From Amphiscolops sp. MND2022 (lineage: Eukaryota), in contig OZ076413.1 of the NCBI GenBank assembly GCA_964187785.1, positions 25,420,001-25,484,000 on the forward strand: a stretch of DNA of 64,000 nucleotides. The letters are read 5' to 3'. Positions 1,879 to 62,952 of this stretch are shown here, piece after piece. The notes under the pieces are model-generated. The model was given only the letters and a program-made list of their open reading frames with translations, did no database searches and was not told the origin of the DNA. The position numbers were made by a program, and so were the translations under genes. The first letter of the stretch is position 1; each line of letters starts with the position of its first letter.

Positions 1879-2508
1879 TCAGGGGACCATGTGTCGTATT
1901 CCTCCCCCCAAGCGGCCACAAGGTACCATTATGTCGACAATGTTTGCGTTGAAATTTTGGTCCAATGAAACAGTTGTAGACATAATCCTATCCATTACAT
2001 TGACTGTCAGTTAAAAGTTGCGTTTAGAAGTGTCAAAACAGAGACAATCCTTTAAGTATGTACATTCATTTAATATGCTCTTATTAGTGAAATATTTCTA
2101 TTCAAGAACAAATTGTACTTTCTTGTTGGGGGGGAGGTATGTTGGCAGAAAAATTTTAGAATGCCGGAATCCTGCAAAAAATGCCAGAAAACAAAACTGG
2201 ACAAAAAAATATAGCTAGGCGTTAGCTGCAAACGAAGTTTTAGACTTGAAGAGCTGTTAAAACGGCTGAAAATTCTAGCTCTCAAGCTGGTGCAAAAATA
2301 TCGTCCTTATTTTCGAAAAAAATAACTAGGCAGTGAAAAGTTACGTAGGTAAAATCAAAAAAGTGCCCGAAAAACAAGCCGAAACGCAAGGATTCGTCCT
2401 TGTCTCCTCATGTCTGGACTACGGCCCTCAGCAGCCAGAGCAACCCAGTTCCAGGACGTGGCCCTGTGACGCTTGCCAGGGACAACAAGCCAGAAGCCCA
2501 GGGAGTGA

Positions 2509-3207
2509 TGTAACGGCAACTTCCGATGTCAAACTTTTCGAAAAAAATTTCGTTCCAATAAGACGTGACAGCTTGAACAAGTTTGAAACAAAGGAAGAAT
2601 AAGTCCCCCAGAATAAGTCCGAAAAGACAAAGCAAGCCTCCCGCGAGAACGAGAGAAACTGAACCAGCAGAAAGAGCAGCTATTCGCGTGTATTTTCACG
2701 GTATTTGGCAATTTCTGAGAAAAGTTCACTACTTTTGTAGTAGAAACCAGTGAATCCGGATGTCTGCCTAAGATCCCTGTTGGTGTCCGGTGGTGCCCTT
2801 TTTCCATGGACAAAATGAACTTGAACTGTGTTATTTTATGTATTTGTTTGCGTAACTTAGACTGAAAGGCTCGAGAAATGTCTGTATAACATTTGTGCTA
2901 CTTTGTTATTGGCGACTGATCAAATTTCCCAGATCTACGGTTTAAATTAAAATTATTCTTTTGGCCCCTTTTTAACAAGCTGAATAGGCAGTGGTCTTTA
3001 GTCCAAGAAAGATACCTGCTATTCTTAGCAGGTAAAGGCCGGGACCAGGCCAGAGAGCATACTATAAGACGGTTCCCCCTCCTTGGGACTGGCATCCACT
3101 GGAGGCAAAATGAGCTAGGGCCATGAAGATCTAAGTCCCGGACCACATTAAGAGTTATGGTTCCTCCTCTTCTAGGTTTCGGTTAAGCACCAGGGCTTGT
3201 CGTTTCA
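2509..3207 (+). repeat. LTR copy 1
   Basis: Starts TGTAACGGCAAC and ends GCTTGTCGTTTCA. Homologous to 15018-15727, 37204-37928 and the reverse complement of 52065-52791. Confidence 0.85.
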
Positions 3208-5739
3208 TTGAAACTCAATCCCACTGAGGGATCGTCTTGGGAAGGTTTCACTAGCGGTTTTTAAAATATCTGGCCCCCTGGTGATCAGCGGCAAGTCCGA
3301 TTCGACTCTGACAATGGAGGAGAGAGCAGAGTTTTACCTACCTTTTTTTAGTCGTATCACGTCCTACCGGAAGTTGAAACGGTCTAGAGCCAGAGATAAC
3401 TGAAAAAATCTCATTTTCAGGTGCAAAAATGGCATTTTTAGAAAAAAAAATCGCCAATTTTGTGTGATATGTTGTGTGCCCATCAGCGGGTACCGTTTTG
3501 CAAGTGTATGTGACCGTAGCGTGTGGCTACGGGTGTTTAACAGGCTTTCTAAACTTTTTTCAGCAATTTTTATGCCATGCAAGTGGGTGACTGGTGGGTG
3601 GTTAGCCATGTTGCAGCCGGACGATTTAAGGGTGAAATCAAGTGTTGCAGACTTTCTACTCCCATGTCTTGTGGAGACGTCCTAAATTTATGGTTTTCGA
3701 TGGAAAGTTTGTGCAAGAATAGACGATGCTAATGGTCTATACTGTGTGTCTCTATCTGGTCTAGATGTGGAGAAAAAGCGCAGCGAAGCTACACCCCCTG
3801 TGACCGAAGGTGTTGCTCCGATGGCTTATGGTTGGCCAAACTATTGAGATTGCACCTTTTTCGACTCGGAATCGTGTGCAGGTCAGAAACGCTTCTTCAC
3901 TATTGTAACGAGGCCCCAGGGAGTGTTTGGTGCGAAAAACATACCACTTGTGAGAAGAAATCCCCATTTTTGGCAATTTTAGGTGTTTTTCTTGGTTTTG
4001 AGCGCTAGTCCTTGACGAAATTGTGAAGAAAATGTTCTTAGAGCAGCTACTAGTCTCGAGAAAGCTAGCACAAGGTGCGGAAAGCGCCAAAGTTGTGTCG
4101 AAAAATGTGGAAGAAACGGAAAAGGGGTCAAATAAAAACGTACCCAAAAAAACAAGAGTACACAAGTGTAAAAGTTTAAAAAGTCGGTGTAAAGCAATTC
4201 TTTCAGCGGAATTAACCCACAGGGCACTAATCGCTTCTTTTGCTTGAAGCTGGTATTTCTGCAAGAAACATGCAGCTTTATTTTTTTTCAGGTATAACTT
4301 AGTGCATTGTCTGAAACCCCAGAGTGCAAAGCTTAGTTGGCGTTTAGGGTCCTTCAAATCCTCATGTTGTGTTTGTTCAGCGAAGACGACGTGTGGTAGT
4401 GAAAACCACATCTGAAAATTCCCTCTACGAAAAGTGGAAAAATGCACTGAATTTGATTGATTTTCCACAAAACCGGACTGTCTCTGAGTTGGGTCAGGTC
4501 ACGTCACTGATTATCGAACCCTGGCCAAAAGTTGAGCGCTTTTTCGTTATCACCACTGAAATAAACACTAAGGCCAAAAACTTGATGGGCGTAACGTTCA
4601 CCTGATCCGAGAAAAGCTCTCTGACGTTTCGAACTTAGAGAAGCGAAGGAGGTCGAAAAAAATCCAAAACTGTAAAACCACTGGTGCCTGATGTTCGTTA
4701 GGTATTGCAAAAAGGAGGCCTATTCCAGTGCTGCAGCTAGTGGAGCAACACGTTTGTCCCATTTCCCCCTCCATATTACCTTTTAAGGCGACCCTCTTAG
4801 CTGATTTGTGAAAAAGTAATCAAAAACAGTGTTTTTTGTGAATAGTCTACATATCGGGTCGAAACATAGAAGAAACCTGGCGCCTCAGTTCGACCATCCC
4901 AGTGGCATTGTGGGGACGTACTGGAATGTAATAGCATGTTTAGGGCCGATCCTTGCAGTACTTGTTTCAAACTTAGTCAAAACAGATTGCACAAAAAGGT
5001 GCGCGAAAGACAGTTTTTCGTGATACCTTCAAGTGAACCCGTCTCCTTAGCCGAAAAATGGGGCTAAAATGGTACCCATCATCGTGAAGTGTACTGGTTA
5101 CTACGTTGTTGCAGAGAATTGGAGATTGATATCTTTTTCTACTTGACCACATTTTTGAACTAGACGTGAAAAACAGCGCACCTCGGTACATAGTGGTGCC
5201 GCCCGACTGTACTCCGTGAAATTGTGTAGAAAAAGTGTAACTCAAATCTGATCTCTTTTCCGTGAAACTTCGTGTACCTATAGTCTGTCGGTCAATTTTG
5301 GGCTAGATACGGCACTTTGGGTGCACACACGAACCAGTTGAGCGTTGACAGGAAGTTTTCGAAAAAAATCAAAATTCTTGAAAAGTGTCCTGTTGGTGCT
5401 TGGAGTTTTAAAAAATCTCAAACCAGGTTGACTTTCAATATCAGTGTGCTTGTCGGAAAGCGCTGTGCAGTACGAACAGCCTACAAGCCCTAAAACGTGT
5501 TTCGAAAAATTTGGGACACCAAAAAGTATCATTTTGTTTGTCCCCACCGACACGAGCAACTCTTTATAGGGCTCTATAGAATTCTTGTGGTGTACTAGAA
5601 TTACTTCACTGCACTCTTCGAGCACGTGTTGAGTAGCCTAGACCCAGACAACGCGCTTATAGCGAAGCCACACGCTTTTGCTTGTCTCTACACTGAGTAG
5701 TGGATTCCTGTGCACCTGAAGTGTGAACCTTTCAGCGGC

Positions 5740-8215
5740 CATGATGTGGCGTCACGGTGCCATACGTCGGTAACGGTCTCTATTTGAGAGGGGCAATGAC
5801 ATCTCAATGCCGCTAATTGAGTTACTCGTCAGTAGCACCGAGCACTTAAATGTGCGGCAGGGGTCCTCGCTCGAATCCTCAGCGAGCAGTTTACGTCTTT
5901 CGGGAGAAATGTCTGATGATATATCTCTTGAGCAACAACGCAAGAAGGATATGGCGTCAATAGCCTCCTTCAGAAGGTTCAGTGGTGTCCGAAGGATCCA
6001 GGCGTACTGAACAATGGATCAACAACATGCGGGGTGGGCGAACACCCTCACCTCGCGAAGAAGGTCGCTGGCCCGATTCAAATATTGCCAATGTGCCGGT
6101 GAATGAGAGTTGCTCTCGCGCAGCCGCCGAAGTCGACAGTCCATAGAGACAAAACACACAGGAACTGTTGCAAGTCCTCAGTTACGTGGGAGGAATGAGT
6201 TTTGCCGGACAACGTGTACAAGACCCTGTGGATATGGAAAGCACAAGAAAGTCAGACCTTCTCTGGTAAATGTACCAAGTGAATTGTGAGCAGGTGACAG
6301 GCCCCGTGCACGGAGCATAGCGAACTCTGTGGCTTCGTCTGTATACAAAGCCGCTGTATTGGAAGCACCTGTGGAGTCACAGCAGTGCAGAAAACACTGC
6401 ATGAAGGGTTGCAAGCTAGTGACCAAATGCGCACGGCTCAGACCATGCAAGCCGTCAGAATGGTAACGATGAGTCATCGTCTGGGCGAAATAAATGGTTT
6501 GTTACTCCAGCGAGAGCTGCGCGCGGAGACTCAGATCTACGATTTAAGCAACCAAATGAACTCGGTGCTCAATGCTATCAAAATGTTGCGTCGCATTAAG
6601 ATGGAGCTGCGTCAGGGGCCTGAGGGTGGAACCAAGACCGTGAAGGCGAGCTCCTCTTCGAGCACATCTGCAGGACTTAACGCATCCAAACCCATTGCTG
6701 AGGAAACCAAGGTCAAGGATCCCATGCTAAGTGTATCTGATGCTGAACGTAAGCCTGCACGAATGCAGTTGAGAGGACCCCATGATTCTAGCTCGACCCT
6801 GTTATCCACAAAGAACACGGCAATGGTTGATACCCGGGACCAAGGGATGGATCACATCACTATCATCCTGGATTCTACCGTTGCCGACCAATCCAGTACC
6901 AAGGCAACTCTGGGATCTCAAATTAATGACGCCATGTTCAAACTAACACAAGCAAACGATGTTCTCTGGACCATGTTCTTTGTATTTGACTGCAGATAAT
7001 GATGTGCCTGCGGGCCTCTCCTGTGCAAGCGGCCGTTGACTTGTCTGTACAGGCCACCAGGGGCAGCGATGACACCACCTGCGATACGGAATCAAAGAAG
7101 GAAGCAGAAATCTCTCCGCCGAGCAATTGATGTTCAGCGCCGCTATTTCGAAGGCTAGGTCTAAAGAACTAGCTCCTCGGCTAGCTGGACGAGTTTGAGC
7201 ACAAGCGAGGCCTCGCGTCTACCGAGGATTTCGCGAAGGCTCTTTTGACGTAAGGATCCTGGTAATGCGAAGATACCGGGAAAGAACACAGTCGAAAATG
7301 TCCTTGGACGATCAAGCTTGTAGGATCATCGGGACCCTCGAGGACGAGGATCGTTACTACGTCATCAACAAAGCCGAGACTGAACGTGATACCCCAGCAA
7401 AAGTGTCTGAGCTTCTGCCCAGTCACTTTGGCACTGCAGGTCGAGCCCAACAAGAGAAGGAGGACGAGATGCAACACTCGGATGCCCTTGACGGTCTCCG
7501 TAGTCAAAGATTTCCTCAAGAATCTATAATCACTAAGCGTTATGAAATCCTGCAGAGCTTCATGCAAGGCGTGCGCGACCCCGCGTTGCGGCGAGAATTT
7601 GCCATCGTGAACGCCTCAGAAACCTTTTTGACGGACCCTTCTACTGTGGAGTCCTTGCACTTCACCACGCGCCAGCTCCAGCGCAACCGCCTTAAGGCAC
7701 CACCACAACCATACGATCCCAGAAAAGCAATGAGGTCTAGACCTCATCCTTTCGTGCCTCTACAACCCAATAAGAAGGCATTAGCGCAGGGTGTAGTACC
7801 ACCCCCTGCACCCCCTTTGAATGCACCGGCTGGTCCTACTGCCACCCCAGCTAGAGCGCCGTTGGGCGCATGCTTCAACTGCGAGCAAAACGGGCACTTT
7901 GCTCGTGAGTGTCCTAATCCAGACAAAATCCGCGAACCTGCAGTAAACCAACCTGACCTGGATGAAGCCTTGATGGCCACTGTGGAAGACTGCTCAGAGT
8001 TCGTAGCCGAAAATGGAGCGCATTTCAGCGTGAATTGTGGTATGATAGATCACGTGGCCTCACAGTGTATGAAAAACCGGTCAGTGACTATTTTGCTTTC
8101 AGTCGGTGGGTCGAAACTGACAACGACGGCATTGCTGATCAAACATTTCCGGTTGAAGATGATCGAGTGCTGTTTCTGCATTCTGGAGAGCTACCCACAA
8201 TGTGTACTCCACTAA
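5740..8215 (+). pseudogene. gag: gag-like polyprotein, frameshifted; helical N-terminal part plus zinc knuckles
   Basis: ORF pieces 5807-6010, 6385-6999 and 7265-8215. CFNCEQNGHFAREC (CX2CX4HX4C) at 7871-7912 and a second degenerate knuckle (NCGMIDHVASQC) near 8030-8070, after a Pro-rich stretch. N-terminal boundary is approximate. Confidence 0.8.
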
Positions 8216-8430
8216 CTGTCACTTGTGGGGAGAAGCGAGTACAGACCTGCTTGAAGCTGACTACATTCGATCCACTACGTCGGACGCTAATATCGCTGCA
8301 TTTGGTATTGGCCTCTGAACGAAAGCAGCGCCCCAACCCGACCTTGCACAAGCAGATTGTAGTGACACGCTCCGACGAGTGCTGTGTTGGAGGAGAGTCT
8401 AAAACATTGTCATCTTAAGCACCCGTCCCG

Positions 8431-8960
8431 ATGAGCGCAACATTAGATGGTGTCGATATGAAGTTCGATGCCTGCGGGGTCATGGACATGTTTCCTCCTG
8501 GAATCTGCCGGGATCGCCAGGAGTTGAGATGCCACAATATCAGTCGACAAGAACCTACCGGAGAAGCCCGCTTTGATGAGGGTGCGTCGCTTGTGGTATC
8601 CTTCGTAGACCCCGAAGCCGCGCCGATACCTTTCAGAGGGGTAAATGACACTGGCTCTGGTGAATATATCTGGACATTCTCAGCTTTCAACAGGAGAGCA
8701 TTGCAGACTGGTGATGTGTTGCGCCCCTACCGTATCGACTTGTACGCCGCCAAAGAATGACCATTAAGACATTCGGTATGATGGAGCGTGTGCGCCTCCA
8801 ACTGGTTGGCTACGAGTTGGAAGCCAACTTTGTGGTCGTGGAATGTGCAATGGGAGCCGAGCTTTCTACTGGGCGGAAACTTCCTCGGATCTATCAAGTT
8901 CCGGTCAACTTGACGGCCATGAGAATTGTAGTGTTAGCGCAAGTTAAGCATATTTGGCAC
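8431..8960 (+). pseudogene. pol: Retropepsin-type aspartic protease (pol N-terminus), frameshifted
   Basis: FRGVNDTGSG with DTG at 8647-8655, followed by RPYRIDLYAA..TIKTFGM..RVRLQL.GYELEANFVVV and an LLG-like motif in a shifted frame. Confidence 0.8.
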
Positions 8961-9443
8961 CACGCCCATACACAGGTTGTTGACTCTAATTCTGCCATTC
9001 CTTTATCTCTAGCGCAGCAGGTTGTATTGCAGCATTTTGAGAGGATGGTAGCTCGAGCTGCCGTAGTAACCAAAACTTTGGAACCACTGATTTTCCAAAC
9101 TTTTGTGCCCAATGCTTTCCTCACCGACGTATCCTTGCACACTGCCATCTTTTTAGAGGATAGCGTGGCCACTATTGGCGAGAGAGACCATCCAGTAGAT
9201 ACAATCCTCCAGAAGTTGTCGTTGCCTTGCGTAGGGGAAGTCCTGTGCCCCAGGTTTAAGGAGTGGTCCAGTGATGGAAATAGCCTGGAATTCATCCTGG
9301 CTACCGTGGTACCCCCTGTGCTGAGCAATAATTCGTTCGGACAATTCAATTTTGAGCGAGAGCCTGTGCAAATTGGTACTAATGTCCGCGTAGTCCTACA
9401 TAACCGCGTGTATGTGTACATACTCAGCGTGGAGGTGGGCTGA
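8757..9443 (+). pseudogene. pol: pol remnant: protease linker fused through two deletions to the extreme pol C-terminus
   Basis: EDSVATIGE (matches right copy ~62720) joins directly to DHPVDTILQKLSLP (right copy ~59550) near 9183. EREPVQ joins to GTNVRVVL (right copy ~58545) near 9372. Confidence 0.8.
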
Positions 9444-9695
9444 AAACATTAAACATTTATTTCTTTGTAAAATCTTCTCCGCGAGAGCCTCAAGCACTCC
9501 TACGTAGTTGAATGCATCTCTGTTAACCTCATATTTTGTTCTTTGTTTGTTTTAGCAAATTTTAGTCAAACTACATGTAGATCGGTCGAGCGCCCTTATG
9601 GAGCTCGTTTTGCTCTATACTGCATATGTTAGTGAGACTTTTGCTCTAACCATCTTAGTATTTTAAGCAATCTGGCGCACACCTTTTTTAGACAT

Positions 9696-12600
9696 ATGAG
9701 CACAGCATGGCATTTTACCCTACGTCCACAGTGCTTTCGTCAAATGCTTAATGGCATCCCAAGGACTCAAGAAGGTGCTCGAGCGCAGTGTGTCAATCAT
9801 GCCCAGTATGTCGAAGAACGCCTAAGAAACGGCATCCCGCCTGTGGAAGTTGCCGGAATAGATGCCGTGCTGGCGCTGGCAGGCATGTCTCTCGCCATAG
9901 TCACCCATGTAGCTGGCTACCGGCGCACTTCCACTTGCCAAAATACCGCATGGGACGGGTACGACTTAACCCGGTAATTTTTTAATGAGCGTTCCACCGC
10001 TGTATATGGACCTATTCAAAGTAATGCTCTCGAGCAAGAGCATCCTTGAGGATGATGCCGCCAATTCTACCACGCCCCAGCAACATCAACCTCTCCAGAT
10101 GGTAAATTATCAACTTCTGGTGTCTCAGGGCTCTTTTGGAGCTATTTAACCGGGGGCCTCTACTGAGTTTAGCAACAAAGACCCTCAGATCAGCAAATAC
10201 CGGTCAAACTACAGAAGTATCACGTCATAGACCCGCCCCATTAATGATATGTGGGGACCAGCGTCAAGCGACTTCAATCTGTAGGCAATTACTCAGAAGC
10301 TTTGAGAAAGCGTACCTTCTAGTACTCATCGAATTAACTTTAGTTACAGAAGCATCGACTTCCTCGCAGCATTGGGCATACCTTGAAAGTGGTAAGTACC
10401 TTTTACCTGTCCGCAAAGCAACAGCACCAACTGACTGAGGAAAATCTGATAGTGAATAGGGTTCATTCAAAGGGTTTCCCTATTCCAGATCAACATAGTC
10501 CCAACGGAATGCATCTCTACGACTGGAGTGCCATTCACTACAAAATTCACAGACGTCAAGAGACAATGATGCGTTCGACAGCGATTGCCACTCCCGAGGG
10601 AGCTGAGATGGGACCATACCCCGATTCTCATAGAAGAACTTTTGTAGGTAGTTTTTGTGTCCCCCTGTTGTCAGGACTGTTGAGGATTTGGTTCCAGGCG
10701 TCGTCTACTGAGCAACCTTGGTTGACACATAACAGTAGCACTCATACTCTGGTGACTGATCTGCCGGGGAGGTGAGCTTTACCTGTCCGAAGATGGAGCT
10801 TCCAGCCACTCGTGAAGGCATCCTTGAACTGATCCACCAACCTCTGGTACCAATACCGACACTAGTTACGTCTTCCTGCGCTGGTTTCCCTGGGACGCCA
10901 CCTTGAGCCCTGCATATGATTTTACAAGCGACGTCTAACGCACCGCAGCCTGCTCTGGGCCCCGTCTTGCACCGTTACCGAACCCGTATCTCGTTTTCCG
11001 GAAACTGGGAGAGCAGGCAGTAATAGTAACGCTGCAAGCCGTAGCTAATTGTCCTGACACTTTATACTTTGTGGAAGCCATTTCACATGTACTACCAGGA
11101 ATGTCTGCATACCTGCAAGCCACGGCGAAGCCTTCGGCTTGCGCACGTCAAGTACCACCAATTGAATCCCTGCCTATGGAAGTACAAGCCACGGAAAACA
11201 CCAGCGAGGCAAAACCGCAACTGGTGGCTGCCACTAGTGACGAAGCAGGACAAAAGAGGTCGCCGCAGGAGGCAACCGCCTCAACCGCAGCAGCCGCAGA
11301 GACGGCCAGACCAAACAGCTGTCCGCCGCCTGGCAAGCAACAGTAATCCGAGCCACCTCAGCCAAACATGTGCAGTGTCGTCATTCCTGTACACCCGACA
11401 GTTGATTAGCGAGGCCCTGTCTTACCACAAATGTGCATGGATGAAGCCAGAGAGACATATGGAACTACGGAAGCCAGCTCTAACGAGAGCTCTGTGCCTT
11501 CGGGCACATCAACGTCTTCAACTGAGCAAGTGGAGACTCCCCCGCGGAACCCATCGAACCCGCTGAAACTCTTCAATAATCCTATCTTCCACCGTGTGAC
11601 GACGTTTCCGGTTCGGTCGTCACCAAACGCATATGGGAGGCCGCCGAGTTCTTTCTTGCCTAGAGGTACATCATAAAGAAACTATGTCCCCCAACGACGA
11701 GGACCAAAAAGCGGTGAACCAATACAACATCGTAGCCAACGTCACCCACGCGCTACGTGCTTATGACGCTGACATGACTGAGCAGGCATGGGAGCAAAGT
11801 GCTCAGGAAAGACTACCACCAACGCCTCACGGTTATTTGACCGCACTGCAGCACAACCTGACGGAGCAATTCCCTTCGAGGTACAGACGGGAAAACATGG
11901 GAGGATAATGCCAGATATGCGAGCACCCGTCATCTCTGAAGCCTCTCCTCAAGAGCGTGCTGCAGCGAGCCCGCTACTGTTTGGTAGTGGACTTCACCTT
12001 CCAAACTGACTTGCCTGTTGACAACCATGATGTCGGATGTAGTGGTGGTGACCATGCCACTTGCCCGCATCCCGAGATGGACGAAATGGCTGTGGCGATA
12101 TTCGCACCTGAGCTTTCGGGCTCTCTAAGAAAGAGCTACCACCACAGCGTGTGATCTTCGCGAACCTTCCAGATCACATGGCTTGGGAAGGATTGCTAGT
12201 GGAGATTAACGCAGCCATCATGATGCAAGATAGCAACCACCCTGAGCGAGCTGGACACCTGGTACAGCTGGTGGCCAAGGCAATGGAGATTGCCATCGAT
12301 ATCCTTCAGGGTCGGTTAGGAGCGTCCGCTCTATTGTGTCGCCGCCCGGCTTGATGTACTTGGGAAGGAATTTCCAAAGATTCATGTACTTGTTGATGGA
12401 AGTCTGCAAGGCCCGCCGCATTAACTTTGCTATCTGTGCGCCGAACTTGCGCGTTGGCGCGGCGACTTTGGGCCAGCAGCTATATTTCATCATGCCTACA
12501 TAGCCGCCATTTCAAGAGTGGTACAGTCCTTTGATTGCTTGGGCCACGCCCAGCTGACGTCAGATGATGCCATTCACTACGACCTTGGAATAACGATGGG

Positions 12601-14294
12601 TCGACTCACCTTTCACCAGCCAGGTAGCCGGAACATGCGAGAGGCTACACTTGCCGAACGAGAGACGGTGCGTCGTCATACCTGGCTTATAAGGAACACC
12701 ACCGAAGTCCACATTCTTTGAGAGCTAACGAAAATGATGAAGCAGATCGGAGATCAGCCAGCAGTACGCTCCGTGCAGCGGACGATTCCGCAAATTTGTT
12801 TCGCTGCTCGAACGGAGCCATTTAAACTCCCAAATGGCTTGAGAAACATCATCCTTTTATACGAAGCTATCAACCTCAAGGTCGACACTGAAGCCCGTGC
12901 CATTACCTATGCGCACTGGTACCAAACCCTATTAGTCGGTCCAACAATGTCGGAAATATCTCGGTATCTATCACTTCCCATTGAAGCCGTTGCCACTAGC
13001 CTTGGCTTAGGCTGGAATCCGGACATCCCCCTGTCTGAGTTTGATCTTACTGACCACCAAGCACTTAAATTGATGGAGACCTTGCCGAAATGACTGTTGA
13101 GGAGTTGTTGTCGCTAGTCTTATCGGTGGGCCCTTCGAAGTCCTCTGGTGTTATTGATTGTCTTGTCTTGTGACCTGATTATGTTCAACACTTATCTGGT
13201 CCTGGCTGAGGGACAACTTTGTAGCCTAATTCGCTGGGGGCACATCCTGTGTAGCCATGACAAGCAGGACTACATTGCGCAGTTCGAGAGGCTGCGTGCC
13301 TATTTGCAGCACTGGCTATACTCATTCCTTATCTATGCGTCAGTTTTTGTCGGAGTCGACCAGGTGCATCCATTGCATGGTCCAGAGTGACAGTTGCCCT
13401 GGAATACTACAGAATTCCTCATGCCGTAGCAGTTCGCTGACCTGACACTTGCCGATATCGATGACCCAATGGTGGTCTTCGCGAGCTAGCACCCGTGTGG
13501 ACCCAACTTACACTTTTAAGCGTATCACCATCCCGAATTGCTATGGGAAAGATCCATTGAGATGGGCGCATGCCCGTTCAGCTATGCGCGCGCCCAATCA
13601 CCTTCAACACCAGTTGCAGCACTTGGATCTAGCTAAGGTTCCAACTTGGATTGAAGGTGGCGCTCAGGTGCGCCAGAGGAATCTGAAGTGGCGTATCATC
13701 CCTACCAAACAGCCCCAGGGCAAGATGAAAATGTCTGTTGATATGTCTCTGCCAATGCAAGATGTCATTAACGCTGTTTTGGGCGCCCAAGCCCCTGCCG
13801 ATTGGGAGGAGCAGTAATTGAAGCTCGAATCTGCCGGGTTCGCTTATTGGAAAAGAGCTTGCGAACTGTGGAGACAACCTGGGTTCTGTACCGAAGTCCA
13901 CTGCCAGAGCCGCTCAGAGACTGAAAGACAGCAGGCGTTGGCGCCTACCAAGGTCATGTCCCTCGACCAACCAAACTCCTTTGCCACGCCATCACTATCT
14001 CAGAAACTGGCTGTCGAGTCAATGCGCCCGCAAGCACCAGTAGTTCCCGAACTTACAAGAGAACATACCGCAGAGTTAACATCCAATGCCGCACTACTGC
14101 AGCCGATTAAAGATTTGGCTCTGACCGAGGAAGTCCCAGACACGGAAACCGTGGTCTCACTCAGTAGAAGAGCCTCTGCCTCCGAGGCAAAAAATCTGCA
14201 AAACAAGGAGAGCTTTGAGGGAAAAGCAGCTAAGGAATATACCAGGCATGGTTCCGTACAAAGAACGGTGTCCTGGAGCGTTCGCGCTCCTTAA
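9696..14294 (+). pseudogene. Large extra ORF2 downstream of pol (env position), unknown function, with SGNH-hydrolase-like domain at ~11960-12560
   Basis: Chain of ORF fragments (9696-9977, 10136-10438, 10383-10775, 11071-11346, 11431-11676, 12151-12354, 12734-13093, 13148-13390, 13449-13817, 13818-14294) whose peptides match in order the minus-strand fragments at 53508-58229. Starts MSTAWHFTL after a ~250-bp spacer behind the pol stop. Confidence 0.75.
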
Positions 14295-15017
14295 GATTGG
14301 AACTGATGTCTCACAAACTCCAGAACTGGTGCCAAACTTTATGCCAATTGCATAGGTGCTAGCAATGCTACCAAAGTGCAACTCTTTGTTAATTCAGTTA
14401 TATACTTTGTTATTTTGTTGTTCCTTTTTTTCTGCAGTGGGTGTACGGCCATTGAGTGCCCCTGCCCCACCTGCTTACATTCAAGAGAGAAAAGAAACCA
14501 AGATACGAAAAAGTACTGATACTTTTGTTCTCCACCGTTCGCGGCGTCTCTGAGTCGCCATAGCTTGAAACACAGCATTAGTTTCAGTTGAGTTCTAGTT
14601 TTCTGTCCTGTTAATTCTATCGACTGTAGTGTTTGTCGCAGAGACCAAGCGCTCCCGGAAAAGTTTTGAAATGCCTCAAACCTGCAAACAATGCTCGAGA
14701 ACAAAACTGGATAAAAAAATTTGCGGGCGTTTGCTGCAAAAGAAGTTTTAGACATGAAGAACTTTTAAAAACGACTTTGAAACTGCTGAAAATCCTAGCT
14801 TTCGAGCTGGTGCTAAAAAATTGACCTTAATTTTGTAAACTAGGCAGTGAAAACGTTACGTAGGTAAAAAAAATTGCCAGAAACAAGCCGAAAGGCAAGG
14901 ATTCGTCCTTGTCTCCTCATGTTTGAACTACGGCTCTCAGCAGACAAAGCAAACTAGTTCCAGGACGAGGCCCTGTGACGCTTACCGGGGACGACGAGCC
15001 AGAAGCCCAGGGAGTGA

Positions 15018-15727
15018 TGTAACTTCCGAAATCACAATTTTCAAAAACAAAATTCGTTTTAATCTGACGTGGCCGCTTGAGCATGTTTGGAGCAAAATAC
15101 CTGCCTGAATCAGTCCCAAACGACAAAGCTAGCCGCCTGCGCGAGAATGCGAGAAACTAAACCAGCAAAAAGAGCAGTTATTTGCGTGTATTTTCAAGGT
15201 AATTGGTAGTTTTTGAGAAGATTTCACTTCTTTTCTAGTAGAAACCTGTAAATCCGAATGTCTGCCTAAAATCCCTGTTGGTGCCCTGTGGAGTTACTAG
15301 CTCGAGCGATGGGTACTCCCTTTAGGTCTTGCCCATTTTCAAAATGGACAAAACGAACTCGAGCTGTGTTATTTCATGTATTTGTTTGCGTAGTTGAGAT
15401 TTCATACGCTCGAGAGCTGTCTTATAACATTTGTGCTTCTTTGTTATTGGCAATTGATCAAATTTCCCAGATCTATGGTTTAAATTCAAATAAATCTTTT
15501 GGCCCCTCTTTAAAAGGATAATTAGCCAGTGGTCTTTGGTACAAGAATTATGCAGGTTATTTTTAGCAGTTAAAGGCCGGGACCAGGCCAGAGAGCATCC
15601 TATAAGACGGTTCCCCCTCCTTGGGACTGGAGGCAAATTGAGCTAGGGATGAAGATCTAAGTCCCGGACCACATTCAGAGTTTGTCCTCTTCCAGGTTTC
15701 CGTTAAGCGCTAGCGCTTGTCGTTACC
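15018..15727 (+). repeat. 3' LTR copy 2
   Basis: TGTAAC start preceded by purine-rich CAGGGAGTGA (PPT-like); ends GCTTGTCGTTACC. Confidence 0.85.
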
Positions 15728-37203: not shown

Positions 37204-37928
37204 TGTAACGGCAACTGATGATGTCAAAATTTTCGGTCAAAAATTCGTTCAAAACTGATGTGTCAGCTCGAGCATGTTTGGAGCAAAGTACCTGCTCAGA
37301 ATCAAAAGACAAAACAAGCCGCCCGCGAAGACCGAACGAGAAAAGACCAGCAAAGAGCAGCTATTCGTGCTCTTTTTCACGGTGTTTCAATGTGTTTTGA
37401 GAGGTTTTCAGTGCTTCCGTAGCAAAAACCCGTGAACCCGGATGTCTGCCTAAAGTCCTTGCGGTGTCCTGTGGAGTTACCAGCTCGATCGCTGGGTATC
37501 CCTTTTTTGGTCTTACCTTTTTCCATGGACGGAACGAACTCAAACTGTTGCATTTAATGTATTTGTTATATAAGTTTAGATTGATATGCTCGAGAGCTGT
37601 CTGAGTAACATCTGTGCTACCTCATTATTGGCGATTTATCAGATTTCCCAGATCTATGGGTCAAATTAAATTCAGTTTTTTGGCCCCTTTTTTATAGGCT
37701 AAATAAGCAGTAAGCAGTGATCTTTAGCCCAAGGAAGATGCCTGTTATTCCTAGCAGTTAAAGACTGGAACCAGGCCAGAGAGCATCTCATTAGACGGTT
37801 CCCCCACCTTGGGACTGGTTCCCTTTGGAGGCAAAATGAGCCAGGACTGTGGAAATATAAGTCCTGGATTATATTCATAGTTCTGGTTCCTCCACTTTCT
37901 CGGTTAAGCGCTAGCGCTTGTCGTTACA
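37204..37928 (+). mobile_element. Solo LTR of the same gypsy family
   Basis: Perfect 7-bp terminal inverted repeat TGTAACG...CGTTACA with no internal sequence on either side. Flanks AAAAA / AAAGA are a possible degenerate TSD. Confidence 0.85.
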
Positions 37929-51612: not shown

Positions 51613-52064
51613 GTTTAAATTATCGGCAACTTCATTTTTCTGCGTCAATTAAAGTGTCAATAAGAATGATAATCGGTTCAAATTTGAGGCGTGTTTGCAC
51701 ACTGACATGACAACGTTTGAGTTACAATTTCCCAGACGTCCGACCGAAAAAGCCGGCTCAAATGAATACTTTGAAGAATCGACATTCCTTTTGAGACTGG
51801 CTAACAATTGCGTGATAATTCAAATTATCGGAATCGTTTGTAGTACTTTACATTTCGAAAAATAATTTATATTAATATAAATGGCCATCACTGCTTGTAA
51901 AACAAACAACTTTAGCAGGCCAGTCTTTTGAAGAATTTCAAATTTTAGGAGTTTTTGTCCGGAAGAACATTTGACACTTTTTGATACAACAGAGAACGCA
52001 ATTATCCTACATAGTTGCCTCTAGACATGAAACTTTCCATTTTGGATGCAAAGCTTGAACAATT

Positions 52065-52791
52065 TGTAACGACAAGCGCTGGTGCTTAACGGAAACCTAA
52101 AAGTGAAGGAACCATAACACTGAATGTGATCCGAGACTTAGATCTTCATGGCCCTAGCTCATTTTGCCTCCAGTGGTTGCCAGTTCCAAGGCGGGGGAAC
52201 TGTCTTATGGTATGCACTCTGGCCTGGTCCCAGCCTTTAACTGCTAAGAATAACAGGCATCTTTCTTGTACTAAAGACCACTGGCTAAGTTGCCTGTTAG
52301 AAAGGGGCCTAAAGATTGATTTGAATTTAAATCAAAGATCTGGGAAAATTAATAAATCGGCAATAAAAAAGTAGCACAAATGTTATACAGACAACTCTCG
52401 AGCGTATCAATCTAAATTACGCAAAAAACATAAAATAACACAGTTCGAGTTCGTTTTGTCCATTGAAAAAGGGCAAGACCTAAAGGAAGTACCCATCACT
52501 CTTGCTGGTAACACCGCAGGACGCCAACAGGGATCTTATGCAGATATCCGGATATACAGGTTTCTACTACAAAAGACGTAAACTTTTCTCAAAAACTGGC
52601 AAATACCGTGAAAATACACGCAAATTGCTGCCCTTTTTGTTGGTTTGGTTTTTTTTCGTTCTCGCGGGCGGCTAGTTTGGTCTTTTGGGACTAATTCTGG
52701 GCAGGTACTTTATTCCAAACACGCTCAAGCTGCCACGTCAGATTTGAACCATTTTTTTTCGAAAATTGTGACATCGAATGTTGCCGTTACA
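52065..52791 (-). repeat. 3' LTR copy 4
   Basis: On the minus strand it reads TGTAACG...CGTTACA and is preceded by CAGGGAGTGA. Its downstream flank (GTTCAAGCTTTGCATC...) is the same as that of LTR 15018-15727. Confidence 0.85.
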
Positions 52792-53507: not shown

Positions 53508-56500
53508 TCAAGGAGCGCGAACGCTCCAGGATACTGTTCATTGTATGGAACCATGTCTGGTATGTTCCTTAGCTGCTTTTCCCTCATTGCTCTCATCATT
53601 GCTTTACAGATTATTTCCCTCGGAGGCAGAGGCTCTTCTCCTGGGTGAAACCACGGTTTCTGTGTCTGAGACTTCCTCGGTCAGAGTCAAATCTTCAATC
53701 GGCTGCACTAGTGCGGCATTGGGTGTTAACTCTGCGGTATGTTCTCCTGTAAGTTCTTGGATTACTGGTGCTTGTCTGGATAGACTAGACAGCCAGTTTC
53801 TGAGATGGTGCTGGCGGGGCAAAAGAGATTGGTTGATCGAGGCATGGCCTTGGTAGGCGCGAACTCCTGCTGTCTTTCAGTCTCTGAACGGCTCTTTACG
53901 GCTAAGACAATGCGCTTCGACACAGAACCAGGTTGTCTCCACAGCTCGAAAGCTCATTTCCAATAAACGAACCCGGCGGATTCGATCTTCAAACACTGCT
54001 CCTCCCAATCGGCAGGGACTTTGGCACCCAAAACAGTGTTTATGACATATTTCTTTGGTAGAGACATATCACCACACTTTGTTATCTTGCCCTGGGGGTG
54101 CGAAACGGGGTCTTGTTCGGTAGGGGTGATACGGTACTTCAGATTCCTCTGGCGCACCTGAGCGGCACCTTCAATCCAAGTTGGAACCCTAGCTAGATCC
54201 GAATGCTCCAAATGGTGGTGTAGACGATTTGGCGCGCGCTACTTTACGGGCATGCGCCCATCTCAATGGATCCTTCCCATGGCGTTTCGGGATGGATGGT
54301 GATACATTTGAAGGTGTAGTTTGGGTCCACACGGGTGCTACCTCGTAGCTAGACGGGAATATTCTCTGCAACGGTAATATTGAGCCCACGGTAATCCTAA
54401 TCAAAACCTTTCTAAAATCATTGGGATGGATACCACTTCACTGGGCTGTGTTCGCGGAGCAGTGGACTCGCTTTTCGACTACAGGCGCGCAGAACGCCCA
54501 TCAGGTTTTCTTCAAGTTGTCTTTCGTCTTGATTGTTGTGTATGCCTGAGGCATCTCTCTACTTATGACCATCTCCAACATGCGGGGATATGTCAGTGGC
54601 TGTTCTCCTAGAGGTGCAGATGGAGACCGACTGTATGCGTAGAGCCGCGACTTTGTTGGATATCCAGCCACTCCAATTGGGCCAAAGATTGGAGCTAAGA
54701 CAGGCGTCAGTACCACCATTAGGTCATCGACCTCGGCAAGTGTCAGCTCAGCAAACTGCTACAGCATGAGAAATCCTGTAGTTTTCCAGACCAATTGTCA
54801 ATCCGGACCATGCAATGGCTGCACTTGGTCGACTGCGACAAAAATCGACGCATAAATAAGGAATTAGTATAGCCAGTGCTGCAATTAGGCACACAGCCTC
54901 TCGAACTGCGCTGTGTAGTCCTGTTTGCCTTGGACACACAGGATGTGCCCCCAGCGAATTCGGCTACAAAGTTGTCCCTCTGCCAGGACCAGATTAGTGT
55001 TCAACATAATCAGGTCACAAGACAAGACAATCTCTATCAATAAGGCCAGAGGAACGGCCACGAACTTCGTAGGGCTCATCGCTAAGTCTAGAGACAACAC
55101 CTCCTCAACGGTCATTTCGGCGAAGGTCTCCATCAATTTCAGTGCTTGGTGGCCAGTAAGACCGAACCCAGACAGAGTGACGTCCGGGTTTCAGCCTAAG
55201 CCAAAGCTAGTTGAAAGGGCTTCAATGGGAAGCGATAGATCACGAGATATTTCGGACCTTGTTCGACGGACTATTCGGGTTTGGTACCAGTGCGCATAGG
55301 TAATGGCACGCGCTTCAGTCTCGACCTTGAGGTTGATAGCATCGTATGCAATGATAGTTCTCAAGCCAATGGAGATTTTAATTGGCTCCGTTCTAGCTGC
55401 GAAACAAATTTGCGGAATCGTCCGCTGCACGGCACGTACCGCAGGCCAATCTCCTATCTGCTTCATCAATTTTGTTAGCTCTCCACGAATGGGGACTTCG
55501 ATGGTGTTCCTTACATGCCAGTTATGACGACGCATCGCCTCTCGTTCGGCGGGAGTAGCCTCTCACATGATCCGGTGACCTCGCTGATGAAACGTGAGTC
55601 GACCCATCGTCATTCCAAGGTCGTAGTGAATTGCATCTTCTAAAGTTAGGTGAACGTGGTCCAAGCAATCAAAGGACTGTACCACTATTGAAATGGCGGC
55701 TATGTAGGCATGATGAAACAGAGCTGTTGGCACAAAGTCGCCAGCACAAACGCGCAAATTCGGGGTACAGAGAGCAAGTTCAATGCGGCGGGCCTTGCAT
55801 ACTTCCATCAACAAGTACACGAACCTTTGGAAATCCCTTTCCAAGTACATCAAGCCGGGCGGTGACACAATTAGAGCGGAGGCTCCTAACCGACCCTGAA
55901 GGATCTCGATGACAACCTCCATTGCCTTGGCCACCAGTTGTACCAGGTGTCCAGCTCGCTCAGGGTCGTTGCCATCTTGCATGGCTGTGTTCATCTTCAC
56001 TAGCAATCTCTCGCAAGGCATGTGATCTAGAAGATTCGCGAAGATCACGCGCTGTGGTGGTGGCTCTCTCTTAGTGAGCCCGAAAGCTCAGGTGCGAATA
56101 TCGCCACTGCCATTTCTACCATCTCGGGGATGCGGGCCAGTGGCATGGTCACCACCATTACATCCGGCATCAGGTTGTCAACAGACAAGTCAGTTCGGAA
56201 GGTGGAGTCCATAACAAAACAGTAGCGGAATCGCTGCAGCATGCTCTTGGGGAGAGGCTTCAGAGATGACGGGTTGCTGGCATATCTGGCATTATCCTCC
56301 ATGTTTTCCCGTCCTTCAAGGTATACCTCGAAGGAAATTGCTCCGTCAGGTTGTGCTACGAGGTGGCCAAATAATCGTGAGGCGTTCGTGTTAGTCTTTC
56401 CTGAGCACTTTGCTACCATGCCTGCTCAGTCATGTTATCGTCATGGGCACGTAGCGCGCGGGTGAAGTTGGCTACGATGTTGTATTGGTTTACCGCTTTT

Positions 56501-58229
56501 TGGTTCTCGTCGTTAGGGTGAATTAGTTTCTTAGTGACTTACCTCTGGACATTAAAGGACTCGGCGGCCTCCTATATGGGTTTGGAATTCGGGTGACGAC
56601 CGAACCAGAACCGTCCTCAGACGGTGGAAGATAGGCAAGTGGAAGAGTTTCAGCGGGTTCGATGGGTTCCGCGGGCGTCTCCACTTGCGCAGTTGAAGAC
56701 GTCGATGTGCCCGAAGGCACAGAGCTCACGTTAGAGCTGGCTTCTGTAGTTCCATATGTCTCACTGGCTTCATCCATGGAGCTTTGTGGTGGTAAGGCAG
56801 GGCCTCGGTAATCAACTTTCGGGTGTACAGGAATGACGACGCTGCGCATATTTGGCTCTGAGGTGTCTCGGATTGCCATTGCTTGTCAGGCGGCGGACTG
56901 CTGTTTGGGCTGGCCGTCTCTGCGGCTGGTGCGGTTGGGGCGATTGCCTCCTGCGGCGACCTCCTTTGTCCTGCTTCGTCACTAGGGCCAGCCACCAGTT
57001 GCGGTTTTGCCTCTCTGGTGTTATCCGTGGCTTCGGCTTCCATAGGCAGGGACTCAATTGTTGGTACTTGACGTGCGCAAGCCAAGGGCTTCGCCGTGGC
57101 GCGCAGGTATGCGGTCATTCCTGGTAGTGTCTGTTGAATGGCTTGCACAAAATCTGAAGGGTCAGGACAGTTAGCTACGACTTGCAGCTTCACTATTACT
57201 GCCTGCTCTCCCGGATTCCGGAAAGTGAGATCTGGGTTCGGCAGCGGTGCAAGACGGGACCCCGAGGACTCCCGAGCAGACTGTGGTGCGTTAGACGTCG
57301 TGTGTAAAATCATATGCTGGCTCCAAATGCACGGGAACCAGCGCAGGAAGGCGTAACTGGTGCCGGTTTTGGTACCAGAGGTTGGTGGATCTGGTCAAGG
57401 ATGACTTCACGAGTGGGTTAGAAGTTCTACCTTGGGACAGGTAAAGCTCACCTCCCCGGCAGATCCGTCACTAGAGTATGAGTGCTACTGTTAAGTGTCA
57501 ACCAAGGTTGTTCAGTAGACGATGCCTGGAACCAAATCCTTAACAGTACTCACCACGTTCAAGGTATGCCCAATGCTGAGAGGAGGTCGATGCTTTTGTA
57601 ACCAATGTTAATTCGATGGGTACTAGAAGGTACTATTTCTCAAAGCTTCTGAGCAATTGCGCACGGATTGAAGTCGCTTGACGCTGGCCCCCTCATGTCA
57701 TTTATGTTGCGGGTCTATGATGTGATAATATTGTAGTTTGGTCGGTATTTGTTGATCTGAGGGACTTTGTTGCTAAACTCAGTAAAAGCCCATGGCTAAA
57801 TAGCTCCAAAAGATCACTGAGACACCAGAGGTTGGGAGTCACCATCTGGAGAGGTTGATGTTGCTGGGGCGTGGTAGAAATGGCGGCAACAACCTCAAAG
57901 GTGCCTCTTGGTCGAGAGCATTACTTTGAGTAGGTCCATACACCGCGTTGGACTGCTCATCCAGAAATTGATGGATTAAGTCGTACCCGTCCCATGCGTT
58001 GTTTTGGCAAGTAAAAGTGCGCCGGTATGGCGAGAGACATGCCTGGCAGCGCCAACACGGCAGCTATTCCGGCAACTGCCACAGGCGGGATTCCACTTTT
58101 TTAGGCGTTTTTCGACATACTGGGCCTGATTGACCCGCTGCGCTCGAGCAGCTTCCTGAGTCATAGGAGTGCCAGCAGGCACTGACGAAGCCACTGTCAA
58201 ACTAGGGTAAAGTGACATGCTGTGCTCAT
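53508..58229 (-). pseudogene. Extra ORF2, right copy (SGNH-like domain ~55640-56240)
   Basis: ATG at 58229 (MSTACHFTL) and stop at 53508. Peptides match left-copy ORF2. Retains ~350 bp (54370-54720) missing from the left copy and lacks ~280 bp (left 10395-10675). Confidence 0.75.
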
Positions 58230-58481
58230 ATGTCTAAAAAGGTGTGCGTCAGATAGCTTAAAATACAACGATGGTTAGAGTATAAGGCTCACTACCAATT
58301 GCAAGAATAGAACAAAACGAACTCCTTAAGGGCGCAGGACCGATCTTTATGTAGTTAGACTAAAACTAGCTAAAACAAACTAAGTACAAAGTTTGCTGTT
58401 AACAGATATGCATTCAACTACGTAGGAGTGCTTAAGGCTCTCGCGGAAGAGAATTTATAATAAATTAAAGGTTTATTCATT

Positions 58482-60560: not shown

Positions 60561-61195
60561 ATGTAGACACGACCTACTTAGAGTACATGAACTGTCTAAT
60601 GAGGACCACGCCAGGCACGCATCAGCTTTTGTGAGCTCTTTTGCGGTACATAACGGCAAATGACCCACACAAGTTCGCCATGCTGATATTCCTGTGCACG
60701 AACGGCATGGTCGTATTTCAATTTTTTGGCGTAACTGGGGTTGGTGCCTGTTGCGCCGCACCAAGTCATGTATCTCCTGTTGGCGAGCCAACACATGATC
60801 CACGTATGCTTCACTTGATTCAAAAAGTTGTGTTGCAAACCCAGGGTACAGGAACGCGAGGGGATGGACTTTTTGACGCCTCACATGAGCATGTATGGCG
60901 AAAAGACAGTGTAATCCCTCGTGACTTCGTCGAGACATTGATCATAGTCGCGATTGCGACGTGAGCAAAGCACACGCAACAGTGCAAAAGCACACGCAAA
61001 GTCAAGAGCGTACAATTTTGTCGCTCGACAAGTCCCTGAGAATGCGGGTGCCCCGCGGTAGAGGTCACCTTGGCTACATGCGATGCTATCAAATACACAT
61101 TTGACACTTCCGCTGTTAAGTTAGGAGCCTTGCGTGTTGATGTGCCATATGAGGTGAACCACTTCTGCAATAACAAAGCTATTGTTTTTTTCTCA
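60560..61195 (-). pseudogene. pol: Integrase (partial) and C-terminal region
   Basis: HPHSQGLVERQNCTLLTL (catalytic Glu helix) at ~61010-61050, and LKYD.AVRA.Y..G.LVWV...KLMRAWRGPH. The N-terminal HHCC finger and first Asp are deleted (junction ~61195). Confidence 0.8.
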
Positions 61196-62250
61196 ATTAA
61201 GTGATAAGCAGCGTACAATTCCAACTTTAGGGCGCCGTATTTTGCTTGCGTGGCAGTCAATCTCTACCGTACACAATGGGGCAAAGGCGGCGCTGCCTCG
61301 GCGGTCCTTGCCACTGATGCAGGATGCTAGAAATGACAACCGCGCTGGCATCAGTATTCATCACATTTCGCCTTCAGAGTCAGGCTGCACTAGCGCAGTC
61401 GCAGAAATCAACGCTTGCTTCATTTCGTTGAAAGCTCTTTGCTGCTGCTCATGACCCCAAGCAAACGTTGCGTTAAGCCCTGTTACCGTATGCAAGAGCG
61501 CGACCAAATTAGCATGCCATGGAAGGAACTGGCGATGGAAATGGGCAAGTTCCAAGAAGCCTTCGATCTCCGTTTTGTTGCGGGGAACCTCCTAATGACA
61601 CAGTTTGGCTACTGCCTTGGGATCAGGCTTTACCCCCTCCAAACACTTGATATCAGACTTCATGAAGTCAAACTAGGCCTCTCGCAATTTGAAGCCAGCT
61701 TCACGGAGGCATTCAAAGACCTCTCGCAAGCAAGCCTTGTGATCCTCCACTGTCTCGGTGGCGTTGACAATATCATCAATATACGATATCAACATGCTTC
61801 CTTCCCGTTTGGCAATGTTTTTGTAGCGCGCGCTTTTGCTCGCTGGAAAGTGGTTGAAGCGTTGCACATGCTCTATTCGAACAAGCCAAATTCACAAGCA
61901 AAGGCAGTCTTGTAGCGGTTGACATTCCTGACCGGAGTTTGGCAAAACGCCCAGACAAAATCAATGCTAGTGTAGATCTTGTCTTTGCCTTGTCTAGCCA
62001 GGCTTTCATCAATGGGCGAGGGTAGGCATCCATCTTTGATGATTACTTCATTCATTGGGCGGAATTCGCAGCAGAAGCGCAGTTCTCCGATTTTCTTTAT
62101 TCATCACGATACCACTCGCCCAAAGGGACAAGGAAGGTTGTATCATCTCCAAGGCCGAGATACTGCGCACTTCCTTATTGGCACGTTCAGCCTTTTAGGA
62201 GACATCTGCCTTGCAGCTTCATGATGCGTTATAGCCCCATACCTCGACCG
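61195..62250 (-). pseudogene. pol: Reverse transcriptase and RNase H (N-terminal part), frameshifted
   Basis: IYTSIDFVWAF.Q.PV...KTAFACEFGLFE, YIDD at 61772-61783, NTDASAVVISSIL, TATQAKYGALKLELYAAYH. Confidence 0.9.
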
Positions 62251-62952
62251 GATGCTTAGCAACTTTGCATCTGCCTATGTCCGTTTTGTGTTTCATCAAC
62301 ATATCATCGACTTCATTGAGTTTCCCAGAGAATCGCAAACACTAGTGCCCACATGTCTTTAACTTCCTGAAGTTGAGAGTCAGGCCCAGGAATCGGAGCT
62401 ATCAACTCCGAATCGCTGCCCTTGCGAATTTTGCGCTCCGACGAGTCCTCCTTACTTGGGTCAGTGGAAGACAAAAACTCAAATTCAGATGAAGACTTTA
62501 ACTCAGATTCAGTTGATAAGTTCATTTCGTCATAAATCTTGTAAACAAGTTTTGCGCGAATTTCCTCAGCTTCAGATTTTTCTGAGGTACTCTCTAGTTT
62601 CTGGGGTACGGCTTCGTAAACCAATGACACTGGGACTACCGTGCCCAACTGTGTGCCACTGCGCACACGCTCTGGGTTACTCGTCAGGTTTGTCAAGCTG
62701 ACGTATAATGTCCCTGTCTCGCCAATAGTGGGCACGCTGTCCTCAAAAAAGATGACATTGTCAAGGATAGGTCTGCAAGGGAGACATTGAGCACAAAATT
62801 TTGGAAAATTGGTCGTTCCAAAGTTTTGATTACTACGGCAGCGCGAGCTACCATCCTCTCAAAAGGCTGCAATACATCCTGCTGCGCTAGAGTTACAGGA
62901 GAGGAAAATGGGACTAACGTGTTGCTCCACTAGCCGCAGCACTGGTAAAGGA

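Follow-up and report, generated by a model that had tools for sequence, protein, structure and literature searches.

The closest described counterparts of the gene treated here are found in the Vesta long terminal repeat (LTR) retrotransposons of rotifers, which carry a GDSL/SGNH open reading frame (ORF), ORF3, behind pol (PMC5408684; also PMC6431247, in part). Gypsy-type elements that carry an SGNH gene where env would lie are, thus, already known (PMC5408684). Mutations in its active site do not abolish the liposome binding of the ZfL2-1 esterase (PMC3905857, in part), and non-Env accessory proteins are able to spread LTR elements between cells (bioRxiv 10.1101/2025.03.14.642691, in part). 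Why retroelements repeatedly capture SGNH domains was left untested for LTR elements by PMC5408684 and by the relevant part of PMC3905857. Here, we describe ORF2 of a large element in Amphiscolops sp. MND2022, starting from a stretch of 64,000 nucleotides (contig OZ076413.1, positions 25,420,001 to 25,484,000, forward strand)—the window—that carries two broken copies of this gene, one left and one right. The stretch at 9696–14294 stems from a degraded member of a ~19-kb Ty3/gypsy-type LTR retrotransposon lineage that is itself still young; ORF2 is the second gene of this lineage and takes the env position.

A 174-aa fragment of the right copy, used as query, returned 2,635 candidates in the same genome. 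About 42 of the 150 scored own-genome matches lie, by hand count, in a 1,430-codon open frame that is 52–53% identical to the fragment; a search for intact copies had been proposed in an initial annotation of the window. In family A, an 18.9-kb element with 715-bp LTRs (99.7–99.9% identical) encodes a single gag-pol of 3,193 codons, with ORF2 ~290 bp downstream. The order of gag-pol and then ORF2 recurs in families B and C; over all three families, the LTRs measure 715–734 bp, end in TG...CA, and are 99.3–100% identical, and the young relatives reach ~19 kb with an internal part of ~17.5 kb. Unbroken gag-pol comprises 3,193–3,204 aa in families A and C, and the ORF2 frames of unbroken relatives, counted stop to stop, span 1,430, 1,479, and 1,432 codons. 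Between families, the ORF2s are 29–39% identical: family B (1,456 aa) shows 35–38% identity to family A, and family C (1,432 codons), with a layout as in A, 29–30% over the core. The lineage holds at least three young high-copy families, and their common layout links ORF2 to this reverse transcriptase (RT) and LTR lineage elsewhere in the genome—a linkage on which the initial annotation had staked its case. The ~1,600 aa assigned to ORF2 at that time were too many: unbroken relatives have 1,430–1,460 aa, and the larger span comes from an extra segment of both window ORF2s (right, ~57295–57870; left, Table 1), for which no match was found in 13 relative loci.

The assignment to Ty3/gypsy, also made initially, is borne out by a natural family A relative, in which Pfam recognizes PNMA-like gag, CCHC, protease, RT, RNase H, then integrase, in gypsy order, with no Pfam match for a dUTPase in pol. 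In the Protein Data Bank (PDB), this pol matches Ty3 Gag-Pol best (E 2.5e-92), with caulimovirus and retrovirus chains scoring far lower. The element family further bears a zinc knuckle CX2CX4HX4C and a G-P-H motif after the integrase. A quick RT tree drawn without named reference clades groups families A, B, and C with a support of 100, and this group joins a sister lineage (P0270) and P0259 with a support of 98. The C-terminal domain of pol (L032:2068-2634, plus strand; in the window ~9184–9440 and, on the minus strand, ~58300–59670) has no Pfam or PDB match and weakly matches the Macro-domain region of the pols P0286 and P0288 (10.7 and 4.7 bits); it is possibly a degenerate macrodomain. 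Inside one copy (L041:1380-5330), ~2 kb of gag are tandemly duplicated. The leader between LTR and gag measures ~2.5 kb (window 3208–5800; L031:520-3056), which is unusually long for a noncoding leader, and is 70–76% conserved between the window copy and family A.

Insertions of this lineage are flanked by 3-bp target-site duplications: of 26 insertions that retain intact ends on both sides, 24 show 3 bp, one shows 5 bp, and one none. In family A, both ends were recovered for 10 of 13 examined insertions, nine of which have 3 bp; family B contributes 11 of 11 and family C four of five clean-ended ones (eight examined), the fifth having 5 bp. The 4–6 bp duplications that are typical of Ty3/gypsy elements, albeit no formal criterion, are hence not what is seen here. 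LTR retrotransposons other than Troyka are described as making duplications of 4–6 bp (PMC12440569). Troyka and the present lineage have the 3-bp duplication in common, but an identity with Troyka was rejected, as the duplications come here with TG...CA ends: Troyka has CG...CG ends, LTRs of 100–400 bp, an internal part below 7.7 kb, a knuckle of the form CX2CX8-10HX4C, and no GPF/Y motif (PMC12440569), whereas the LTRs, the ~17.5-kb internal part, the knuckle, and the G-P-H motif described above all differ. The combination of 3-bp duplications with TG...CA ends contradicts the claim of Troyka as the sole 3-bp LTR group, and annotation tools requiring 4–6 bp would miss these abundant elements. 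The primer site is displaced as well, lying 15–16 nt from the LTR in families A, B, and C; in family A, it is an exact 18-nt complement of the host tRNA-Arg(TCG). The same genome holds a tandem array of tRNA-Arg(TCG) with a spacing of ~174 bp (C9:57537788-57575206 and beyond, L151-L155), and 270 forward pattern matches to this tRNA, which matches the family A primer site, occur genome-wide. The initial annotation had noticed neither the duplications nor the displaced primer site, nor the sister lineage described below, in which an active SGNH domain is accompanied by a degenerate one.

All folding was performed on the natural open frame of family A. Its N-terminal core, the N-core (aa 395–800, 58 alignment rows), gives a model with a predicted local distance difference test (pLDDT) score of 72.7 and a confident α/β core, mostly above 85, in which four parallel-type strands alternate with helices. 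In a structural search of 48,161 chains, PAF-acetylhydrolase (PAF-AH) comes first (Z 8.0, root-mean-square deviation (rmsd) 3.8, 172 aligned); behind it rank GDSL lipases, carbohydrate esterases, the Oskar OSK domain (Z 6.3), and phage tail esterases; a second structural search gives PAF-AH a Z of 8.4. Among the top 50 rows of the first search, clearly other folds stand at ranks 48 and 50 only. Nine titles name GDSL or SGNH, and the remaining rows are given the family names that we take them to have. As Z scores of 7–8 are common according to the tool's own warning, it is the uniform match list and not the top score that supports the fold. On the strength of this model, we are highly confident that the domain adopts an SGNH fold with blocks I, II, III, and V in order, in line with the fold initially suggested.

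Residue counts over 42 natural ORF2 sequences served to assess the catalytic state. In block I, the Ser is present in 34 of 36 non-gap rows, while block II has Pro in 39 of 42 sequences where Gly would be expected. Block III reads N-x-x-D-H instead of GxND, with both the Asp and a hydrophobic residue before it in 42 of 42, and the position equivalent to the block V His holds Arg in 39 of 40 non-gap rows. The loss of Gly, Asn, and His with retention of the Ser, which had been read from the window copies, is thus apparent across the natural set. The motif blocks that had been merged from both copies hold in part: the later blocks all align to a natural unbroken relative, and the right copy carries the Ser (M-D-S-T at 56201–56212, minus strand), but the left copy reads V-V-D-F-T at 11984–11998, with Phe at the Ser position. 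Over 19 nonredundant rows including the sister lineage, Ser525 is kept in 13 of 14, Asp584 in 19 of 19, His585 in 18 of 19, and Arg682 in 16 of 17. The SGNH definitions ascribe a structural role to the block III Asp (PMC10792757, in part); with these definitions applied to blocks II, III, and V, the oxyanion hole and the base appear to be missing. Given the fold, the canonical triad has very likely been lost, and the predicted domain is likely no hydrolase any longer.

A bridge to active enzymes is offered by the sister lineage. An RT search led to P0270, whose pol is 53% identical and is followed behind the integrase by a Lipase_GDSL_2 domain; ORFs of this family extend up to 2,400–2,850 aa. 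Their first SGNH domain is intact (Ser in 65, Gly in 67, Asn in 66, and His in 66 of 68), and a second domain follows, which together with the helical region behind it matches ORF2 aa ~571–1028 at 49 bits (single query). Profiles of the degenerate domains of ORF2 and of the sister align with an HH probability of 98.25%, compared with 0.23% for the reversed control, and reversed sequences gave no match to the profiles. The degenerate domain of the sister has G-x-N-D in block III (Gly 65/66, Asn 59/66), which seemingly connects it to the canonical motif, and the sister lineage supports the SGNH reading independently. The tandem-SGNH sister lineage was sought in the Amphiscolops genome and is absent; the best matches are 31–34% identical and stem from another family. 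In some sister-lineage proteins (P0304, P0306, and P0359), SGNH blocks are repeated.

Among own-genome pairs, the ratio of nonsynonymous to synonymous substitution rates (dN/dS) is 0.045–0.088 for the SGNH domain (five pairs) and 0.041–0.092 for the helical core, compared with 0.15–0.23 for the linker and 0.039–0.051 for pol. For the SGNH domain, it is 0.24 versus family B and 0.14 versus the right window fragment, with dS saturated in both. These ratios indicate purifying selection on ORF2 of a strength like that on pol, which answers the question of selection raised initially. An acceptor-like pyrimidine run with AG precedes the ORF2 Met by 12, 10, and 9 nt in families A, B, and C, and a similar site lies 15 nt before the Met in both window copies; ORF2 is probably made from spliced RNA. 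The protein has a conserved N-terminal block at aa ~18–125, long Pro/Ser-rich linkers, and a C-terminal core, the C-core (aa 771–1310), that is modeled as helical with a pLDDT of 64. For the C-core, Foldseek gave no match at E ≤ 0.001 among PDB and viral models, and the wide search reached at best a Z of 5.8 with generic helical bundles, so that no fold was assigned.

The ORF2s of families A, B, and C lack a signal peptide (N-terminal Kyte–Doolittle (KD) hydropathy, KD11, −0.31, −0.29, and 0.9) and an internal furin site—the sole RxxR match lies at the extreme C terminus of A, with none in B or C—and also a C-terminal transmembrane (TM) anchor, the best hydrophobic segment being located ~400 aa from the ORF2 end. 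By these features, the predicted protein is not a classical class I fusion envelope glycoprotein. The initial annotation had arrived at the same view, and it had also listed Pro/Ser-rich linkers and further helical domains. Its statement that there is no clear TM anchor must be qualified, as a hydrophobic Pro-containing 19-mer recurs at the same place in all three families, near aa 1020–1065 (KD 2.28, 1.73, and 2.08).

We favor, at a probability of roughly 40%, that ORF2 is a signal-less, likely spliced protein of ~1,430 residues whose pseudo-esterase and hydrophobic segment tether particles to membranes. The full-length RNA would give rise to Gag-Pol and the spliced RNA to a cytoplasmic ORF2 protein. 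Its pseudo-esterase pocket, together with the hydrophobic segment, might then attach particles or ribonucleoproteins to lipid or membranes for assembly or transport. This role is suggested by analogy with the catalysis-independent liposome binding of ZfL2-1; for a possible spread between cells, the non-Env accessory proteins offer a precedent. If true, the strong selection on an apparently noncatalytic domain would mean that binding, and not hydrolysis, is what has been kept.

A number of observations weigh against this membrane-tether role or the fold on which it builds. According to the tool, models that lack a clear match commonly reach a Z of ~8, and Foldseek, the check that had been proposed initially, found nothing with the N-core at E ≤ 0.001 among PDB and viral models. 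Neither Pfam, applied to fragments of the window as well as to relatives and more distant homologues, nor PDB sequence and profile searches gave an SGNH match, and the ESM Atlas held no usable match for either degenerate domain. Profiles of active and degenerate SGNH domains do align in register over 114 columns, but without significance (E 0.12, reversed 0.74), and block V was placed by position only, not by atomic superposition. The net charge of the domain is 0 to +1, unlike the basic surface of ZfL2-1; the hydrophobic segment reaches only 1.41 in the sister protein and is modeled with low confidence; and dS exceeds 1 in most pairs, which makes the ratios rough.

The lack of a significant Foldseek, Pfam, or profile match at a Z of only 8 would also suit another three-layer α/β fold with a merely convergent SGNH likeness, and some formyltetrahydrofolate ligases do appear at Z 5.3 in the second structural search. 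We regard this as very improbable, as chains of esterase type or known to be SGNH-like fill the top 47 rows of the 48,161-chain search and the sister homologue, with its G-x-N-D in block III, registers with blocks I–III of active enzymes. Within the SGNH fold, the domain might bind RNA in the manner of Oskar OSK, a nonenzymatic RNA-binding SGNH domain (PMC12005264 and PMC10792757, in part), so that the protein would scaffold element RNA in granules or steer it to the germ plasm. OSK stands at rank 9 of the wide search (Z 6.3, rmsd 5.6, 158 aligned), and the long Pro/Ser-rich linkers and the missing signal peptide would fit. However, it is tied there with many enzymes and lies below PAF-AH, it has no Ser (PMC10792757, in part) where the ORF2 family keeps one, Pfam OSK does not match the ORF2 domain, and this domain is not basic; an OSK-like function is, hence, unlikely.

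The kept Ser could instead belong to a domain that is still an enzyme, its base having been relocated—possibly to the near-invariant His that follows the Asp of block III. The conservation of Ser525, Asp584, His585, and Arg682 speaks for this, as do the circularly permuted and chimeric triads that occur in the SGNH superfamily (PMC10792757, in part). It is nevertheless quite doubtful, since both oxyanion positions are apparently changed, the structural role of the block III Asp explains the conservation of this residue, and the separate intact SGNH domain in the sister ORF fits a division of labor. Rather improbable, too, is a protein-binding accessory factor that would, for example, scaffold Gag or counteract silencing by the host, with the SGNH domain being structural only: the ~600-aa helical core without a fold match is as conserved as the SGNH domain (dN/dS 0.04–0.09) and at least three families of the lineage are young and high in copy number, but there is no positive sign of a partner, and the kept pocket Ser would go unexplained. 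The boldest form of the membrane-tether idea is a long shot: an undescribed ~19-kb Ty3/gypsy lineage with its own integration geometry (3 bp, TG...CA) and a displaced primer site, in which a tandem of an active and a dead SGNH domain would have shrunk to a pseudo-esterase of 1,430 aa, taking over from Env in moving particles across membranes or into the germline.

The two window copies represent one old insertion that was copied once by an inverted duplication (~2148–25498 versus the reversed 42382–64000, 79–88% identity), whose match continues past the right window end. Both ORF2 copies sit in its arms and are 82–88% identical, the outer flank of the 3' LTR is common to both, and the three LTRs have diverged alike (85.5–85.8% identity); left and right copies are hence not independent. 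The left copy has kept gag-protease, but a loss at ~9184 has taken out its RT, RNase H, and integrase, while the right copy has kept broken RT and RNase H and a partial integrase, with gag absent. The homologous start of the left ORF2 is the ATG at 9707, not 9696. Neither ORF2 copy is open, and the longest stop-to-stop frames inside 9696–14294 are 173 and 158 aa. Tiled onto the unbroken relative, with overlapping pieces counted, the left ORF2 falls into seven pieces with 12 stops and the right into 12 pieces with 21 stops, and the equivalent of the relative's aa ~1026–1148 is missing from the left. The LTR after the remnant at 2148–2508 (Table 1) is, as the polypurine-ended 3' untranslated region (UTR) before it suggests, the internal LTR of a tandem-type arrangement. 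Such tandems of the order LTR-internal-LTR-internal-LTR are suggested for old and young copies (window 2148–2508; loci L140 and L144) by a polypurine tract before or a leader after LTRs.

Table 1. Positions of element-derived features within the 64-kb window
Feature	Positions	Strand	Basis or remark
3' UTR remnant with terminal polypurine tract	2148..2508	+	matches 14658-15009; purine tract abuts LTR
5' LTR of left copy, followed by a partly deleted primer site	2509..3207	+	start resembles young-relative LTRs; 85.6% to left 3' LTR
Matches to the relative's gag-pol	5807..9182	+	tblastn; zf-CCHC E 2.8e-08; 4.6-kb jump versus relatives
Predicted splice-acceptor-like T-run and AG before ORF2 start	9684..9691	+	window sequence; similar site in families A, B, C
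Left ORF2, broken: stops, frame changes, extra segment ~10040-10890, deletion ~13480	9707..14294	+	
Predicted degenerate SGNH-like domain, left copy (relative's aa ~518-703)	11970..12535	+	alignment to relative; relative's predicted fold
Helical C-terminal core of left ORF2, no fold match, truncated at conserved hydrophobic segment	12536..14190	+	
3' LTR of left copy	15018..15726	+	LTR comparison
Solo LTR of related subfamily, flanked by 3-bp (AAA) duplication	37204..37928	+	79% identical to the element's LTRs
3' LTR of right copy	52063..52791	-	LTR comparison
Right ORF2, broken; acceptor-like AG at 58235-58234	53508..58218	-	
Right copy: predicted degenerate SGNH-like domain, with the Asp-Ser of block I inside 56201-56212	55670..56227	-	
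Candidate membrane contact: conserved hydrophobic segment with proline (aa 1020-1038 in the relative)	54666..54722	-	
Broken RT, RNase H, and part of integrase, right copy	60941..62765	-	tblastn with relative

Within the 64-kb window, no tRNA or Rfam family was found. A ~3-kb AT-rich unit forms nested inverted and direct duplications that are 77–87% identical (18457–29236 and 38828–49425) within the large inverted duplication.

The same genome also harbors a distant gypsy family (L156-L165; e.g., L165:134-1114, plus strand, and L158:2195-4297, minus strand), whose RT–RNase H is 35–39% identical to that of family A. It encodes gag, pol, and a canonical SGNH ORF of 320–340 codons (Pfam GDSL_2 E 4.9e-14, OSK E 2e-09), followed by an ORF of ~700 aa that, by eye, shows a signal peptide, an R-x-x-R site, and a C-terminal TM segment and thus appears env-like. 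With this family and with Vesta, an SGNH cargo at the env position of a gypsy element, of which the initial annotation knew no example, is not without precedent. A natural contrast is provided by families with the degenerate domain alone, by the sister lineage, where it accompanies an active domain, and by an unrelated family of the same genome with a canonical SGNH beside an env-like gene. The literature search, with Repbase, subscription journals, and the Troyka and rotifer supplements outside its scope, found no large pseudo-SGNH ORF, no active-plus-dead tandem, and no TG...CA gypsy element with 3-bp duplications, and the lineage may have been described before.

Among the known systems, the ORF1p esterases of ZfL2-1, CR1, and RTEX are retroelement-borne SGNH domains as well; those elements are, however, non-LTR, and their domain occupies a gag-like position, is an active enzyme, and has a basic membrane face (PMC3905857, in part). 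The ZfL2-1 entry 4c1b is not among the best 50 rows of either structural list. Oskar OSK resembles the proposed ORF2 function as a noncatalytic SGNH fold repurposed for binding (PMC12005264 and PMC10792757, in part), but it belongs to a host gene and has lost the nucleophile Ser that ORF2 keeps (PMC10792757, in part). Errantiviruses, Burro (PMC6431247, in part), and sORF2 elements (bioRxiv 10.1101/2025.03.14.642691, in part) share the extra, likely spliced gene behind pol and the large size. Compared with such env-bearing or giant gypsy elements, ORF2 is without signal peptide, furin site, or C-terminal anchor and is no short fusogen, and the lineage is smaller than Burro and bears a different cargo (PMC6431247, in part). 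Vesta comes closest, as a gypsy-type element in which an SGNH ORF lies downstream of pol, at the place of env but devoid of env features (PMC5408684). All four catalytic residues are retained in its GDSL ORF3s, which were obtained as cloned 1.3-kb fragments (PMC5408684), whereas—compared by description only—ORF2 is a 4.3-kb, multidomain gene with these residues apparently replaced, in an element of ~19 kb that makes 3-bp duplications.

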